Shown here: positions 35,202-41,278 of the stretch, one piece after another
Layout: every line of letters begins with the position of its first letter
Numbering within the stretch: position 1 is the stretch's first letter
Origin: Candidatus Poribacteria bacterium
Lineage (GTDB): Bacteria; Poribacteria; WGA-4E; JAJDTR01
Direction of reading: 5' to 3'
Assembly (NCBI GenBank): GCA_965222225.1
Contig: CBDCTK010000002.1
Coordinates: forward strand, 1,408,001 to 1,472,000
Length of the DNA stretch: 64,000 nucleotides
The notes under the pieces: model-generated
Database searches by the model: none
What the model was told of the DNA's origin: nothing
The model's input: only the letters and a program-made list of their open reading frames with translations
Program-made: the position numbers and the translations under genes

Positions 35202-36722
35202 CTACACTTCGTAGCGCAAATGAACAACTTTGTTAATCGCGTCAATGTACGCCTTTGCGCTAGCTTCAATGATGTCCGTACTTGCACCGTAACCGACAAT
35301 TGAATGCTGATTGTCCTGAACCCTGATTGTCACCTCTCCCATAGCATCTTTCCCCTCCGTCACGGACCTAATACTGTAATCTGCAAGAACAAGAGGAATC
35401 TTAGCGACGCGATCAATCGCTTTATAGGCTGCGTCGACAGGCCCGTCGCCCGTTGATGCTTCTTCAATGAGGCCCTCCTCCGTTAATATACCCACGGTAG
35501 TTGTAGGTGAAATCTTCGTTCCGCAAACGACTTGGATATATTCAAGTTGGAAAGTTTCCGGAATTGAGCGAACCTCGTCGCGCATGATTGCATCAAGATC
35601 GGCGTCGTGGACCGCCTTCTTCTTGTCTGCGATTTCAAGGAAGCGTTCATAGATTTTATCGAGTTTTTCCTGTGTGAGATTGTAGCCAAGCACGCTTAAA
35701 CGGTGTCTCAGCGCGTTCCGACCGGATCGTGGACTGAGGATGATCTGGCTCTCTTGCCAACCCACATCTTCGGGATCGATAATCTCAAACGTATCCCGCT
35801 GCTTTATCACGCCATCTTGATGAATACCCGAGCTATGTGCAAAGGCGTTGGCACCGACGATGGCTTTGTTTGGCTGAACCGGAATACCCATGGTTCGGCT
35901 GACTCGGCGGCTTATCGGCACAATCTCCTTCGGTTCGATGCCAGTATGGTACCCCTCGAAATAATCGTTGCGCGTTCGAATTGCCATCACAATCTCTTCC
36001 AACGAAGTATTTCCTGCCCGCTCCCCAAGCCCGTTAACGGTGCACTCGACCTGACGTGCTCCGTTTTTGATTGCTTCCAAACTGTTCGCCACGGCAAGAC
36101 CAAGATCATTGTGGCAGTGGACGCTAATGACCGTGTCACCGATATTCGCAATACTAACAAATATCTTGGCAATCAACTTCCCGAAATCTGACGGCATTGC
36201 GTACCCTACGGTATCAGGAATATTGATGATGGTTGCCCCGGCGTCAATTGCCGCCTCAATCACCTTGAACAGATAACTAGGTTCCGTCCGTGCGGCGTCC
36301 ATTGGTGAAAATTCAACGGTTTCACATAGGCTCCTTGCATAAGTCACGGCATCAACCGTTCGCTTCAGTATTGTCTCACGATCGGAGCGAGTAATTCCCG
36401 CGACGTGAATATCCGATGTGCCGACAAAGGTATGGATACGAGGCTTTTTGGCATCCTTGATCGCACCCCACGCCGCAGTGATGTCTTTCTCAACGATTCG
36501 TGAAAGCGCGCATATTTCTGGGCCTTCTACTTCGTTCGCAATGCGTTCCACCGCATCGAAGTCACCAGGTGATGAGACTGGGAAGCCGGCTTCGATAATA
36601 TCAACATTCAACTTAGCCAGATGTTGGGCAATTTCTAACTTCTCTTCGAGATTCAACGCGGCGCCCGGGGTCTGCTCGGCATCACGAAGGGTTGTATCAA
36701 AAATGTAAACTTGCTCAGACAT
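35202..36722 (-). CDS. leuA: 2-isopropylmalate synthase
   Basis: IFDTTLRD, HCHND, GERAGN, HSSGIHQDG, GDGPVDA regulatory domain; alternative in-frame start at 36833. Confidence 0.97.
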   Translation of the reverse strand: MSEQVYIFDTTLRDAEQTPGAALNLEEKLEIAQHLAKLNVDIIEAGFPVSSPGDFDAVERIANEVEGPEICALSRIVEKDITAAWGAIKDAKKPRIHTFVGTSDIHVAGITRSDRETILKRTVDAVTYARSLCETVEFSPMDAARTEPSYLFKVIEAAIDAGATIINIPDTVGYAMPSDFGKLIAKIFVSIANIGDTVISVHCHNDLGLAVANSLEAIKNGARQVECTVNGLGERAGNTSLEEIVMAIRTRNDYFEGYHTGIEPKEIVPISRRVSRTMGIPVQPNKAIVGANAFAHSSGIHQDGVIKQRDTFEIIDPEDVGWQESQIILSPRSGRNALRHRLSVLGYNLTQEKLDKIYERFLEIADKKKAVHDADLDAIMRDEVRSIPETFQLEYIQVVCGTKISPTTTVGILTEEGLIEEASTGDGPVDAAYKAIDRVAKIPLVLADYSIRSVTEGKDAMGEVTIRVQDNQHSIVGYGASTDIIEASAKAYIDAINKVVHLRYEV

Positions 36723-36898: not shown

Positions 36899-37915
36899 CT
36901 AGACTTCCCGACCTATCGCGCCGGCGATTGATTTAAGGTCGAGCATGAGTTGATCGAATTGATCGGGAAATAGCGACTGCACCCCATCGCCGGTCATCGA
37001 ACTGTCTGGGTCGTGATGAACTTCCAGAAGTAGTCCATCCGCTCCTGCGGCAATAGCCGCTTTCGACATTGGTGTAACAAGGCTCCGGATACCTGTTCCA
37101 TGACTTGGATCTACGACGATAGGCAGATGGCTCAACTCCTTAATCACTGGCACCGCGTTTAGGTCAAGCGTGTTCCGTGTGTGCGTCTCAAAGGTACGAA
37201 TTCCGCGTTCGCACAGAATCACGTTTGGGTTACCTTCGGAAAGGATATATTCGGCTGCGAGCAACCATTCCTCAATCGTTGCCGCAAATCCACGTTTTAG
37301 AACTACGGGCTTGCCCGATCTCCCTACCTCGCGCAGAAGATAGAAGTTCTGCATATTCCGTGTCCCAAGTTGAAAAATATCTGTGTACCTGCCAACGAGC
37401 TCGACATCGTGTGGCGTCATGACTTCCGTGATAATTCCAAGCCCCGTTACCCGCCTTGCCTCCGCGAGCATCTTGAGAGCAGGCTCGCCATGGCCCTGGA
37501 AATTGTAGGGGCCTGTGCGTGGTTTGAATGCGCCACCTCGAATGAAGGTCGCACCCGATTTCGCAATTTCTTCTGCAATTGTGACAATCTGCTCGGTATT
37601 CTCAACTGCGCACGGTCCTGCCATAACGATAAGCTTTTTACCACCTATCTTCGTGCCGTTGGCTTCAACAGTCGTTGGTTCACCACGAAATTGACGGCTC
37701 GCCAACTTGTATGGTGCGCTTATCGGCATCGTGCTTTCGACCCCCGACATTGATTCAATTGGCATGTCACCAAGTCGTGTTTTATCACCAATGACTCCAA
37801 TAACAGTACGTTCTTCGCCGATAGACGGTTGCGCTTTCACGCCGGCAGCCTCGATTCGTTTAATAATATGGTCTATCTGTTCTTGCGATGCCCCAAGTTC
37901 CATAATAATCACCAT
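36899..37915 (-). CDS. aroF: DAHP synthase type I-beta with N-terminal regulatory domain
   Basis: [38 protein letters not shown]. Confidence 0.95.
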
Positions 37916-37958
37916 GGTCGCTGTCTCCCTATCGGATTTCCACTTCTCTTCCATATAC

Positions 37959-38000
37959 AAAAAAAGCCCACCATCGACTCTTGTGTCAATGATGGGCTTT
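37959..38000 (-). terminator. attenuator terminator upstream of aroF
   Basis: AAAGCCCATCATTGAC-loop-GTCGATGGTGGGC followed by T7. Confidence 0.85.
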
Positions 38001-38024
38001 GTTAATCAATTAGTGTAGATAATT

Positions 38025-38177
38025 CTATGAAATCATTACTATCGACACCAGCCCATCATCGGAGCGCAAATACAACAAGAATGCATAAAGCACCCAAGCA
38101 TAGACACAACAATAATATACGACATCGTAGCTGTCGAACTGATTTGCTAGGCTGGTATGTAGATGCGGAAGGCACAT
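38025..38177 (-). CDS. aroF-leuA leader peptide (50 aa, Tyr/aromatic/Leu/Val-rich)
   Basis: MCLPHLHTSLANQFDSYDVVYYCCVYAWVLYAFLLYLRSDDGLVSIVMIS; contains antiterminator GATGATGGGCT complementary to the terminator 5' arm. Confidence 0.7.
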   Translation of the reverse strand: MCLPHLHTSLANQFDSYDVVYYCCVYAWVLYAFLLYLRSDDGLVSIVMIS

Positions 38178-38221
38178 AAGTCTCGGTTATTGAATCACAA
38201 GTTTACCAATTTCCACCTTGT

Positions 38222-38250
38222 AGTGTAACAAACATGTTTGTAAATGTCAA
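38222..38250 (-). promoter_or_regulatory. sigma70 promoter of the aroF leader
   Basis: TTGACA-N17-TACACT. Confidence 0.7.
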
Positions 38251-38255
38251 GTTTA

Positions 38256-39491
38256 TTATTCGATTACAACGCGGCGAAAGCGTTTTTTTCCATGACGAAG
38301 CAACAGGGTACCGTCATCAAGATGTTTCTCTGTTACAATCGAATCTGACTCCTTCACCTGCTTACCATTCAGGTACGCACCTCCCTGTTGAATTAGGCGA
38401 CGGACGGCGCTCTTGGAACCACCCAAGCCAACTTCACAGAACAGATTTACGATGGGGATTCCGCCTGTGAGCCTATCAGCGTTGATGGTTGTCGTTGGAA
38501 TCGCCGACAAATCAATGCCCTCATCTCCAAAAGCAGCACGCGAAGCATTGCGTGCGTTCTCGGCTTCAGTTTCCCCGTGAGCGAGTTTGGTAACCTCATA
38601 GGCAAGTACCTCTTTTGCCTCTCGAACCGATTCGCTCTTTAATTTCCCTAATCGTATAACTTCATCCATAGGCAAAAGGGTAAAACACGCCAGAAACCGC
38701 TGTACATCACGGTCATTGATGTTAACCCAGTATTGGTAAAATTCGTAAGGAGATGTGCGGCTAGTGTCGAGCCAGACCGCGCCACCTGCCGTTTTACCCA
38801 TCTTTTCGCCACTCGCAGTGGTAAGTAGTGGGAACGTCACCGCATGTACAGTCTTCCTCTCAACGCGACGAACCAGGTCAACGCCCGCCAGTATGTTTCC
38901 CCACTGATCATCGCCGCCAAGTTGGAGTACGCAGCCATGCTGTCGAAAGAGGTGAAGGAAGTCGTAAGCTTGCAGGAGCTGGTAGTTGAATTCGATAAAT
39001 GATAGCCCCCCTTCGCGTTCAAGGCGCTGTCGGTAAGCTTCTGCCCTAATCATCTCATTGACGCGGAAGTGTCGTCCAATGTCGCGCAGAAATTCAATGT
39101 AACTAAGTGGAAGTAGCCAATCCGCGTTGTTCAGGAATATACCGCTTGCATCGCTAAAATCGAGATAGCGCTTTAGTTGGGAGAGGATTTCCATCCCGTT
39201 GGATTCAATCGTTTCACGCGAAATCATCTGGCGCATTGTAGTTTTACCGCTAGGATCGCCTATCATCGTGGTTCCGCCCCCAATGATAGCAATTGGGGTA
39301 TGTCCTGATCGTTGAAGGTGCACCATTGCCATAATGGGAACAAGACTCCCCACATGGAAGCTGTCGGCGGTCGGATCAAATCCGACGTAGTAGGTAATCT
39401 TCTCTACGGACAACAGCCGTGTGATTTCATCCGCATTGGTACATTGTTGTATGAATCCTCGCTCTTTCAAGGTTTCAAAGACATTCTCCAC
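38256..39491 (-). CDS. tyrS: tyrosine--tRNA ligase
   Basis: YVGFDPTADSFHVG, QLGGDDQWGNI, KMGKT, S4 domain; GTG start after GAGGTG. Confidence 0.98.
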   Translation of the reverse strand: MENVFETLKERGFIQQCTNADEITRLLSVEKITYYVGFDPTADSFHVGSLVPIMAMVHLQRSGHTPIAIIGGGTTMIGDPSGKTTMRQMISRETIESNGMEILSQLKRYLDFSDASGIFLNNADWLLPLSYIEFLRDIGRHFRVNEMIRAEAYRQRLEREGGLSFIEFNYQLLQAYDFLHLFRQHGCVLQLGGDDQWGNILAGVDLVRRVERKTVHAVTFPLLTTASGEKMGKTAGGAVWLDTSRTSPYEFYQYWVNINDRDVQRFLACFTLLPMDEVIRLGKLKSESVREAKEVLAYEVTKLAHGETEAENARNASRAAFGDEGIDLSAIPTTTINADRLTGGIPIVNLFCEVGLGGSKSAVRRLIQQGGAYLNGKQVKESDSIVTEKHLDDGTLLLRHGKKRFRRVVIE

Positions 39492-39531
39492 TAGACAACA
39501 CCTCACTATGTAAAATATTTGACCCGCCAAC

Positions 39532-39570
39532 AAAAAAGCCCATCATCGACTATGTCTTTCGATGATGGGC
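39532..39570 (-). terminator. attenuator terminator upstream of tyrS
   Basis: GCCCATCATCGA-loop-TCGATGATGGGC followed by T6. Confidence 0.85.
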
Positions 39571-39596
39571 GATTGGTGAATGCTTGTTAGGAACCT

Positions 39597-39737
39597 TTAA
39601 GATACTTTTTCAGTTGCCACCAGCCCATCACTACACCACCCGTAGAATATATACAAATATCTCACGGCATTAATTCGCGCATGACGGTTAAGGATTCCGT
39701 CTATGCTAATGATGGGGTACGAATCAATTTTTCTCAT
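39597..39737 (-). CDS. tyrS leader peptide (46 aa)
   Basis: MRKIDSYPIISIDGILNRHARINAVRYLYIFYGWCSDGLVATEKVS; Tyr cluster just before antiterminator TGATGGGC. Confidence 0.7.
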   Translation of the reverse strand: MRKIDSYPIISIDGILNRHARINAVRYLYIFYGWCSDGLVATEKVS

Positions 39738-39769
39738 AATCAAACAGAGTCCGTATGAATTGCAACTAA

Positions 39770-39799
39770 ATCATAACTGATGATTCTTTGAGATGTCAA
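39770..39799 (-). promoter_or_regulatory. sigma70 promoter of the tyrS leader
   Basis: TTGACA-N18-TATGAT. Confidence 0.65.
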
Positions 39800-39966
39800 G
39801 CAAATCTTGTTCCAATTCCCCCCACTTTCCGATTCCATTTGCCCCCATGCACACATCAATGCAGGGATAAATGAGCGAACAACATTTGCCGAGGAACTAG
39901 CTGGGAAAATGGCAAGTTTGAACGATCGGGAGAGGGCGTCCGGCAGGCTTTGATGTACAATTCAGT

Positions 39967-39995
39967 TTGACAGAATTCATGGGAAATAATACCAT
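39967..39995 (+). promoter_or_regulatory. sigma70 promoter of the methionine gamma-lyase-like gene
   Basis: TTGACA-N17-TACCAT. Confidence 0.6.
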
Positions 39996-40052
39996 AGCTT
40001 GCAATCTGAAGGAGGAAATAGATACCTTCTCTATCAGGAAAAGGAGATAACC

Positions 40053-41278
40053 ATGACAGTTAAACCACATCGCTACGGGTATGCAACGAAAGCTATACAC
40101 GCTGGCGAGGAATCTCTTCCAAGGACGGGGCCACTAATTCCGCCAATCTACCAGAATAGCACATTCCGATTTGCAACAGCAGATGAATGTGTAATTGGAT
40201 TTACCGAAAAAAGCGCTGACTATGTTTATACCCGCTGGGGAAATCCCACTCAATCGGTGCTAGAGGCTAAGATTACCGCGCTTGAAGGAAGTGAGGACGC
40301 CTTAGCAACGGCGTCGGGCATGGCACTATAAGTACGGCACTACTCACACTGCTTGAGCGTGGAGATCACGTCGTAGCGATGGACTCGCTCTATTCGGCAT
40401 CACACAACGTCCTCAATGAGGATTTGCCTCGAATGGGAATCGAAACAACTTTTGTGGACGGAACAAAGGTAAACGAAATTGAGCACGCGATACGTGCCAA
40501 CACTAAGGCAGTTTATATTGAAAGTCCGGCGAATCCGACGCTGAAGCTCGTTGACATCCGTGCTTGTGCGGAAATCGCGCGGAGCCATAGTACAACGACA
40601 ATTATCGTCAATACATTTGCCTCACCATGTGGGCAACAGCCCATAGCCCTCGGAATTGATATTGTCCTTCATAGCATGACTAAATATCTGAGTGGAAACG
40701 GTACGGTTATTGCCGGAATCATTGCGGCTTCGGCAAAATTCGTCGAACGCGCGAAGACACAGGTGTTGCGAAATGTCGGTGGGATAATCAGTCCATTTAA
40801 CGCCTGGTTAACACTTCACGGTATTGCAACGCTTCCATTGCGTTTTGCGCGACACTGTGAAAATGCTTATCAAGTCGCAACTTTTTTGGAAAGCCATCCC
40901 GCTATCGAATGGGTGCGCTATCCGGGCCTTCCTAGCCATCCGCAGCGTCAGCTCGCCAAACGGCAGATGCAATCTTTTGGAGGGATGGTTGCCTTCGAAC
41001 TCAACGATGGGATAGAAGCCGGCAGACTGCTTGTAAACAGCATTCAGCTATGCTCGCTGGCAGTGAGTCTAGGCGATGTACGCACACTAATCTGTCACTC
41101 CGCTTCAACCACACATTTGCATGTATCCGCAGACGTACGGAAACGCTCGGGTATCACGGATGGATTGGTGTGTCTTTCCGTTGGCTTGGAGGATGCCGAG
41201 GACATAATCGCAGATCTCGATCAGGCATTATCCTCGACAACGGTGCGACTTGACAAGAGATTCAATACACCCCGATAA
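40053..41278 (+). pseudogene. megL: methionine gamma-lyase / trans-sulfuration PLP enzyme, frameshifted at about 40326
   Basis: YTRWGNPT, ATASGMA then continuation ISTALL in the -1 frame; ESPANP, HSMTKY, SLGDVRTL. Confidence 0.8.

Follow-up and report, generated by a model that had tools for sequence, protein, structure and literature searches.

The window analysed here is a stretch of 64,000 nucleotides from the genome of a Candidatus Poribacteria bacterium (assembly GCA_965222225.1, contig CBDCTK010000002.1, positions 1,408,001 to 1,472,000), and the elements in question are two leader regions within it, one preceding tyrS, the gene for tyrosine–tRNA ligase, and the other preceding aroF and leuA, which encode a type I-beta 3-deoxy-d-arabino-heptulosonate 7-phosphate (DAHP) synthase and 2-isopropylmalate synthase, respectively. 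Both leaders and all three genes lie on the minus strand (Table 1). A terminator-like site was looked for in the gap between aroF and leuA in the window and none was predicted. Among named organisms, those nearest at the aroF locus (91–93% protein identity) are listed as Candidatus Poribacteria bacterium, so the host is not a Firmicute.

The two leaders share one layout consisting of a promoter, a short open reading frame (ORF) with clustered Tyr codons, an identical segment, a stop codon and a terminator followed by a T-run, as described in a first-pass annotation of this DNA. The tyrS leader promoter is kept in the upstream regions of the genus of the window (g1), and the aroF leader promoter overlaps the 3' end of tyrS. 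The identical segment is the 13-mer TGATGGGCTGGTG, found at 39630–39618 in the tyrS leader and at 38058–38046 in the aroF leader and present in exactly two copies in the window. The same annotation had read this segment as DGLV in both peptides and had noted its complementarity to the terminator, and both statements are correct: the ORFs end in ...DDGLVSIVMIS (aroF) and ...DGLVATEKVS (tyrS), and the terminator 5' arm, GCCCATCAT(C/T)GA, is complementary to TGATGGGC of the 13-mer in both leaders. Its description of the leaders as Tyr-rich holds for the clustered Tyr codons in both but is incomplete for the aro leader, which is also rich in Phe/Trp and in Leu. By our arithmetic, a second exact copy of the 13-mer is expected by chance about 0.002 times in 128,000 positions. 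One more exact copy exists genome-wide (C2:5081729), within coding-looking sequence and without a terminator. With up to two mismatches allowed, three copies are found against 1.33 expected and 12 of 100 shuffles reach three, so that this count is not unusual.

The leaders can be divided into four segments, termed A to D, of which B is the 5' arm of a predicted antiterminator, C is used by both the antiterminator and the terminator, D is the 3' arm of the terminator and A is a candidate anti-antiterminator pairing with B. GC-rich terminator hairpins of −21 to −26 kcal/mol followed by T6–T7 stand between each leader ORF and its gene. In the tyrS leader GCCCATCATCGA (39570–39559) is separated by a loop of 9 nt from TCGATGATGGGC (39549–39538), which is followed by T6; the aroF terminator (38000–37963) contains 16 pairs, followed by T7.

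Table 1. Features of the tyrS and aroF-leuA region (window coordinates) and the two T-boxes found elsewhere in the genome (G000, contig C2).
Feature	Position	Strand	Details
tyrS leader promoter	39770..39799	-	TTGACA 39799-39794, 18-nt spacer, TATGAT ending 39770; consensus scan, 11/12 positions
tyrS leader ORF	39597..39743	-	MRKIDSYPIISIDGILNRHARINAVRYLYIFYGWCSDGLVATEKVS, then stop; TTG 39743 (48 aa) or ATG 39737 (46 aa), TAA 39599-39597
tyrS segment A	39708..39716	-	CCCATCATT; candidate anti-antiterminator against B; A:B present in full-length minimum free energy fold
tyrS control codons	39642..39659	-	TAT 39659, TAT 39653, TAC 39644
tyrS segment B	39618..39632	-	AGTGATGGGC plus TGGTG; antiterminator 5' arm, includes common 13-mer
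tyrS segment C	39559..39570	-	GCCCATCATCGA; used by antiterminator and terminator; nearly invariant in 34 modules
tyrS segment D	39532..39549	-	TCGATGATGGGC plus T6; terminator 3' arm and U-tract; hairpin −21.3 kcal/mol
tyrS	38256..39491	-	tyrosine–tRNA ligase; TIGR00234, 404.7 bits
aroF leader promoter	38222..38250	-	TTGACA 38250-38245, 17-nt spacer, TG-TACACT ending 38222; 10/12 consensus, extended -10 TG
aroF-leuA leader ORF	38025..38177	-	MCLPHLHTSLANQFDSYDVVYYCCVYAWVLYAFLLYLRSDDGLVSIVMIS, then stop; 50 aa, 6 Tyr
aroF segment A	38150..38156	-	ACCAGCC, pairs with GGCTGGT in B; minimum free energy fold; kept in g1
aroF control-codon region	38070..38129	-	Tyr 17, 21, 22, 26, 31, 36 plus Phe, Trp and Leu codons
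aroF segment B	38046..38060	-	GATGATGGGC plus TGGTG; common 13-mer
aroF segment C	37986..37997	-	GCCCATCATTGA
aroF segment D	37959..37977	-	TCGATGGTGGGC plus T7; hairpin −25.6 kcal/mol
aroF	36899..37915	-	type I-beta DAHP synthase; NF006421, 477.6 bits
leuA	35202..36722	-	2-isopropylmalate synthase; alternative start 36833; directly 3' of aroF
T-box L001	G000:C2:20296-20548	+	
T-box L002	G000:C2:3750317-3750570	-	

A whole-genome search for the terminator motif finds this cassette four times in the genome of the window (G000), before aroF-leuA, tyrS, ileS and leuS. The ileS leader ORF ends in ...SLIIIIP (ATT ATC ATT ATA CCG TAG) immediately 5' of CAC-GATGGTGGGC, and the leuS leader reads ...NVLSELLRLPCVMGGGVLRRR up to its stop codon; leuS leaders carry ...LNLTLLRLCLALALL....

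The tyrS and aroF-leuA elements are best interpreted, with a probability of roughly 0.85, as ribosome-mediated transcription attenuators built on one reusable A-B-C-D cassette that has been retuned by its codons. Transcription would start at a strong sigma-70-type promoter and a ribosome would translate the leader ORF of 46–50 codons, in which the control codons (Tyr for tyrS; Tyr, Phe and Trp, and probably Leu, for aroF-leuA) would end about 12 nt upstream of B. When the charged tRNA is scarce the ribosome would stall on the control codons and leave B free to pair with C once C has been transcribed, blocking the C:D hairpin and allowing RNA polymerase to read into the gene. When charged tRNA is plentiful the ribosome would reach the stop codon and mask B, the C:D hairpin would form and the U-tract would terminate transcription, and in the absence of translation the pairing of A with B would likewise lead to termination. 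Leader translation, stalling and amino-acid-dependent read-through, like all of the functional steps, are what we infer; the ribosome-stalling logic put forward in the first-pass annotation is supported by conserved frames, matching codons and alternative pairings.

The alternative pairings are retained among the 34 modules that were aligned, with the C:D terminator 98.8% paired and the B:C antiterminator 84.4% paired (over 90% in a 9-bp core). B:C is 97% paired in 11 leuS leaders and 100% paired in nine tyrS leaders. A:B is 93.9% paired in the leuS leaders, with one compensatory pair (C-G to U-A), and in the tyrS leaders (nine sequences) 96.3% of the cells are paired versus 35–62% in slid controls, with no compensatory change. 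Support for A:B in the aroF leader is weaker, as family f3 uses a different pairing register. For the antiterminator, the covariation check that had been suggested for these elements gives support by conservation only, with B:C conserved at 84–100% and covariation almost absent.

Folding calculations for G000 are consistent with these pairings. The full-length minimum free energy (MFE) folds of the tyrS, aroF and leuS leaders contain A:B together with the terminator, and in that of the ileS leader the terminator is accompanied by a local hairpin that joins B to the Ile-codon region. When 12 nt were masked at the last control codon and the transcript was ended after C, a stalled state for which the ribosome footprint was assumed, the MFE structure was B:C in all four leaders, with energies of −22.5 (tyrS), −25.8 (aroF), −14.8 (leuS) and −22.3 kcal/mol (ileS). 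With the ribosome placed at the stop codon B is masked and the terminator alone remains. Logan contigs assembled from the metatranscriptomes of two studies extend over the two leaders and continue past each terminator into aroF or tyrS; these were not counted as evidence. Contigs of run X1 break at 38166/38225 beside the predicted aroF promoter and are deeper downstream, a pattern that shows neither transcript ends nor levels and in which DNA carry-over is possible.

The codon content of the leader ORFs follows the downstream gene (Table 2). The ORF scored in each leader was the longest one starting with ATG, GTG or TTG and stopping between 95 nt upstream of segment C and C itself, and residues were averaged over the last 25 positions, with the ORFs of at least 300 aa of this genome as background. 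The leaders come from related genomes (61 in the comparison set), so the counts are not independent, and the pattern recurs in many genera. Class-specific enrichment is 2–4 fold over background and is weakest for tyrS. At least four Phe, Tyr or Trp residues are present in 57 of 59 aro leaders, at least five Ile in 13 of 20 ileS leaders and at least five Leu in nine of 11 leuS leaders, and runs such as IIII (ileS), YLYLYLYLY (aro) and LLRLRL occur. Among 12 aro leaders of genus g9 the series Y-L-Y-L-Y-L-Y-L-Y is kept while Tyr codons (TAT/TAC) and Leu codons (CTN/TTR) interchange, and this retention of residues through synonymous changes points to selection on the decoded amino acid. Leu is in two-fold excess in the aro leaders and often alternates with Tyr, which suggests bivalent control by aromatic amino acids and leucine.

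Table 2. Mean number of selected residues in the last 25 positions of leader ORFs, by class of downstream gene.
Leader class	Y	F	W	L	I
aro (n=59)	3.4	2.2	1.1	5.0	0.5
tyrS (n=10)	2.4	1.1	0.6	2.9	0.9
leuS (n=11)	0.4	0.7	0.2	5.6	0.6
ileS (n=20)	0.2	0.5	0.1	2.0	5.2
Background	0.79	1.03	0.38	2.38	1.58

These compositions could also arise if the ORFs encoded functional small hydrophobic proteins, their residue richness being that of membrane-like peptides, and if the hairpins were ordinary partial terminators. The aro peptides do share a motif, W-[AV]-L-[FY]-x-L-x-L-Y ... GG, that is recognisable between families. The peptide composition switches with the downstream gene, though, and in every case the stop codon falls inside the antiterminator arm (segment B) or shortly beyond it. 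The four leader peptides have no match in Pfam or NCBIfam, and the stop codon of the tyrS leader shifts by four codons among close relatives. A codon-position test found no protein-like selection on the leader peptides: substitutions at the three positions number 24/26/23 in the g1 aro leaders and 25/24/19 in the tyrS leaders, and few columns vary synonymously only. This lack of third-position bias argues against a functional small protein but not against translation, and fits a leader peptide. The small-protein explanation is accordingly considered very improbable.

The placement of the codons relative to B agrees with attenuation. The last Tyr codon starts 12–13 nt upstream of B in the tyrS leader and 12 nt upstream in the aroF leader (codon 38072–38070). 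Of the 26 aro leaders scored (33 others, mostly f2-type, were skipped), 21 have a distance of exactly 12 nt from the start of the last aromatic codon to B, and the last control codon of the ileS leaders lies 8–15 nt before B in 15 of 19. Segment B is read as GAT-GGK-GGG in the tyrS, aro and ileS leaders and as GTG-ATG-GGC in the leuS leaders; this different frame indicates that B is conserved as RNA and not as peptide.

A covariance model (R1) built from the 34 modules matches 58 of the 61 relatives, typically two to six times per genome, as well as all five genomes searched from families f5, f6, f7, f9 and f11; none of the four genomes of family f8 was matched. Of 40 matches that were fetched, 19 stand before ileS, ten before leuS and six before a gene for an aroFGH-type DAHP synthase, and five are weak or odd (one at the 3' end of a gene, two before a cupin-like gene, one beside hisS and one before a thrC-like gene).

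Orthologs of tyrS are present in 33 of the 61 relatives. Absence of conserved leader frames or Tyr codons at orthologous loci had been named beforehand as an argument against attenuation; at the tyrS locus the frame and Tyr cluster are kept in nine of the ten g1 genomes with an ortholog, the upstream region of G008 being unrelated, and at the aroF locus the homologous ORF and terminator are present in five families (f1, f2, f3, f4 and f7). The frame A-V-R-Y-L-Y-x-x-Y is open in all nine g1 tyrS leaders, including that of G007, where 15 nt are deleted without a change of frame. A tyrS leader was found at none of 19 family f2 loci, which have a short 5' untranslated region instead. The aro leaders include ...FVFYLYLYLYLYGNDRW before the stop codon (f2 g9), ...LGLFFLYFFYYSDCGRKW... 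(f4 g7) and ...KFYYSYIYALKLYLGLYFYTQRWW... (f7); no leader was seen in the aroF upstream regions of f5, f11 or a 58%-identical paralog in f3 g6. On these sequence comparisons the aroF leader is far older than the tyrS leader, and the tyrS copy is narrowly distributed, confined to g1 and a deviant copy in g2, within a module that is otherwise phylum-wide.

When the 34 modules were placed in a maximum-likelihood tree, those of tyrS grouped as one clade (support 93/96) and those of g1 aroF as another (97/94). Support at the deeper nodes (40/8) is too low to identify a donor for the tyrS copy. The earlier proposal of a duplicated module retuned by codon changes is borne out by the swapped codons before ileS (Ile) and leuS (Leu); its restriction to one narrow lineage is not, the module being spread across the phylum. 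A broader and more tentative reading, which is possible but on balance doubtful, is that the cassette is a portable, phylum-wide plug-in attenuator, recruited repeatedly by ileS, leuS, tyrS and two non-homologous DAHP synthases, both of which keep leuA behind them, with specificity set only by the codons about 12 nt upstream of B and with bivalent control of aro-leuA.

Several observations weigh against ribosome-mediated attenuation or limit the support for it. As the cassette hardly varies, there is little covariation, with none at all in tyrS, where shuffle controls are uninformative; B:C pairing in the 34-module set does not exceed that in shuffles. In folds that include D the MFE structure is always the terminator, even with B free. 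The switch is therefore assumed to be kinetic, as in classical attenuators, and since equilibrium folding with D cannot separate the states, discrimination comes from the truncated-transcript folds only. Shine–Dalgarno-like sequences 5' of the tyrS and aroF leader ORFs are weak, and two of the nine g1 tyrS leaders (G003 and G007) do not share the start codon of the others. The Tyr enrichment of the tyrS leaders taken alone is modest (two to four Tyr, with at least three in just five of ten leaders). In g2 the cassette is present upstream of tyrS, where the homologous frame has no Tyr codon and reads through the terminator. Fewer than three Ile are counted by the ORF rule in six of 20 ileS leaders (g2; f4 g5, L184; f4 g7, L185 and L188; f4 g8, L187; f3 g4, L194). 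Shortfalls in these residue counts come in part from choosing the longest ORF and in part from genuine deviants (g2, some f4 ileS leaders and the 5'-truncated G027 leader). Finally, the near-invariance of segment C over four operon classes and the phylum exceeds what pairing needs.

This last feature could instead reflect a trans-acting factor, for example an antiterminator protein of the BglG/SacY type acting on a ribonucleic antiterminator or a TRAP-like protein, that binds B/C and controls or co-controls the leaders, the ORFs being secondary. Segment C (GCCCATCATYGA) is nearly invariant in the 34 modules, which come from four operon classes and several families, and the cassette is recognisable across the phylum, both of which a common factor would explain. 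C is constrained by its pairing with B, by its pairing with D and through the coding role of B, however, and this can also explain its slow change. A common factor would leave unexplained the match between the codons of each ORF and the gene behind it (Ile with ileS, Leu with leuS, Tyr with tyrS and aromatic codons with DAHP synthase), and no candidate protein was identified. Moreover, family f2 retains the architecture with other B, C and D sequences (GGTGGTGA / TCACCACC and CCCAGCGTCGA / TCGATGTTGGG); in f4 g5, segment C is altered to GCCCGTCATCGA and D to TCGATGACGGGC, and both variants suggest that there are further compensatory pairs. Control by such a factor is therefore judged improbable. 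Within the attenuator interpretation, the near-invariance of C may reflect an additional partner, which could be a protein, the ribosome or polymerase.

The genes concerned (tyrS, ileS, leuS and aro) are typical targets of T-boxes, and divergent T-box-like riboswitches that sense tRNA, with the UGGU after GGGC as the acceptor-binding bulge, would be another means of regulating them. The sequence GGGCUGGUG superficially resembles the T-box sequence GGGUGGUACC in the T-boxes of this same genome. The T-box model RF00230 is unmatched in the window and in the ileS and leuS leaders, whereas it finds the two canonical T-boxes of the genome, before ilvB and pheS (104.7 and 93.5 bits), in a genome-wide scan with one other match of 16 bits. 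The UGGN sequence is not conserved: the bases after GGGC are CTAGCG, CTGACG, CCGGCG or CTGATG in tyrS leaders and CAGGTA, CGCAAG or CAACAA in aro leaders. No Stem I or specifier loop was detected, and the control residues form in-frame runs rather than a single specifier codon. T-box identity was consequently rejected and a divergent relative is held to be highly unlikely. More generally, none of the 4227 models of Rfam 15 matches the 64-kb window at gathering score, nothing relevant is found with these models (RF00230 included) at E ≤ 10 in 37800–40100, and the ileS and leuS leaders have no match at E ≤ 1. The first-pass annotation was thus right that no T-box is visible at tyrS; the Firmicutes context in which it set this point does not apply to a poribacterial host. 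The leaders share with T-boxes (RF00230) the same target gene classes and the same antiterminator/terminator output, and differ in that sensing would be by translated codon runs.

The individual parts of this arrangement have precedents. In Escherichia coli pheM-pheST, a short ORF rich in cognate codons and an antiterminator/terminator switch precede an aminoacyl-tRNA synthetase operon. The tyrS leader is similar in placing a cognate-codon ORF and such a switch before a synthetase gene, but concerns another amino acid, phylum and sequence, is much longer (46–50 codons), has an ORF that runs through the antiterminator 5' arm and belongs to a cassette reused for four operons. The E. coli ilvGMEDA (Ile/Leu/Val) and thr (Thr/Ile) leaders are multivalent attenuators, and the aro-leuA leaders likewise mix control codons (Tyr/Phe/Trp with Leu, as in YLYLYLYLY), except that their genes belong to unrelated pathways, at the entry to aromatic and to leucine biosynthesis, and that the role of the Leu codons is a putative one. 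Rfam contains the amino-acid leader families Trp_leader, Phe_leader, Leu_leader, His_leader and Thr_leader, which represent the same class of mechanism, and no Rfam model matches the poribacterial leaders even at permissive E-values.

Outside Proteobacteria, Seliverstov et al. (2005; PMC1262725) predicted classical attenuators before two genes of Streptomyces, leuS and trpS, and gave pheST as the gamma-proteobacterial example of classical synthetase attenuation. Those predictions resemble the present leaders in combining a leader ORF containing Leu or Trp codons with hairpins of the antiterminator and terminator kinds, and the passages of that article on these actinobacterial genes describe no cassette shared between operons. 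The same passages report ileS of Actinobacteria as a translational T-box and mention tyrS there just in a cited reference. Since attenuation of synthetase genes is already known (pheST) or predicted (trpS and leuS), the leaders constitute a new family of a known mechanism; the claim of an undescribed cis-regulatory family holds in that they fall outside Rfam 15, but not as regards the mechanism. No paper on attenuators in Poribacteria was found in the literature searched, nor any account of tyrS or ileS being controlled by a leader peptide, a search that did not cover Lopatovskaya et al. (2010; Mol Biol 44:128, cited in PMC4833913), which may treat synthetase attenuators of other phyla.

In every family compared leuA lies directly behind the DAHP synthase gene, with a gap of 36–237 nt behind aroF-type genes. 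In family f3 (g4, g6 and g11) the homologous aromatic leader and its cassette precede a gene for an aroFGH-type (class I-alpha) DAHP synthase (L166, L169, L170, L173, L176 and L193), an identity supported by TIGR00034 (258.9 bits). This gene also precedes leuA in g4 and g11, and about 1 kb of extra sequence separates the two in g6. To judge from these sequences, the DAHP synthase of f3 is displaced by a non-orthologous enzyme under a retained leader, and the presence of leader and leuA around both enzyme classes indicates that the arrangement survived the replacement. In G041 the leader and the aroFGH-type gene are present in two near-identical copies.

A de novo genome scan for a terminator combined with a codon-enriched ORF was noisy; the leaders of aroF and ileS were among its matches, and it drew attention to trpS. 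Its top match, a Cys-rich ORF at C2:871468, falls within a coding region and was set aside. The trpS leader (G000:C2:~1009240-1009640, minus strand) has a strong promoter (TTGACA...TATAAT) and a 30-codon ORF, MSYFSCTVISVPFYTWPWHYGCGVEVRLED followed by a stop codon, with two Trp (...FYTWPWHYG...); its terminator, GCCGCAGG...CCCGCGGC-T6, is unrelated in sequence to the common cassette. This combination of a Trp-codon ORF and a terminator suggests that the attenuation logic is used a fifth time in G000. One genome would then mix both types of control, with T-boxes before ilvB and pheS and putative attenuators before tyrS, ileS, leuS, aroF-leuA and trpS.

The odd matches to R1 include two weak extra copies of 47–56 bits in genus g6 (L179, G039:C1:1723477-1724451, and L182, G035:C1:6117848-6118822), which are located some 6 kb 5' of the aroG leader and before a gene starting MWKSFKVKVEPL..., resemble the 3' half of an aro leader and have no obvious control-codon ORF. 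In L183 (G013:C326:14745-15707) a symmetric terminator, GCCCATCACCGA...TCGATGATGGGC, stands just 5' of hisS and about 1.5 kb from the aroF leader. It was not counted as a member, having no His-rich ORF and no clear B segment, and could represent either a degenerate cassette or a terminator that works in both directions. In L192 (G005:C1:2469870-2470836) a weak match of 33.6 bits places a terminator directly 5' of the thrC-like gene. Upstream of the tyrS leader in the window, on the plus strand, an enzyme of Cys/Met metabolism dependent on pyridoxal 5'-phosphate (methionine gamma-lyase/cystathionine gamma-synthase family) is apparently split into two ORFs at 39999–41278. The profile alignment of the ORF at 40379–41278 begins only at position ~110, and the N-terminal part is encoded by another ORF, which stops at 40331; a frameshift, making this a pseudogene, or else an indel in the assembly would account for this.

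What distinguishes these leaders is the presence of one cassette in four operon classes across the phylum, with tyrS and ileS among the genes under putative leader-peptide control. They offer a view of how synthetase genes and the entry steps of aromatic and leucine biosynthesis may be regulated in an uncultured, sponge-associated phylum. The cassette defines an RNA family that is detectable by a covariance model and lies outside Rfam, and its inclusion could improve the annotation of Poribacteria. Its modular reuse by codon swapping bears on how cis-regulators evolve and on how synthetic attenuators can be designed, and the persistence of the leader–DAHP synthase–leuA operon suggests that the supplies of aromatic amino acids and leucine are functionally coupled.

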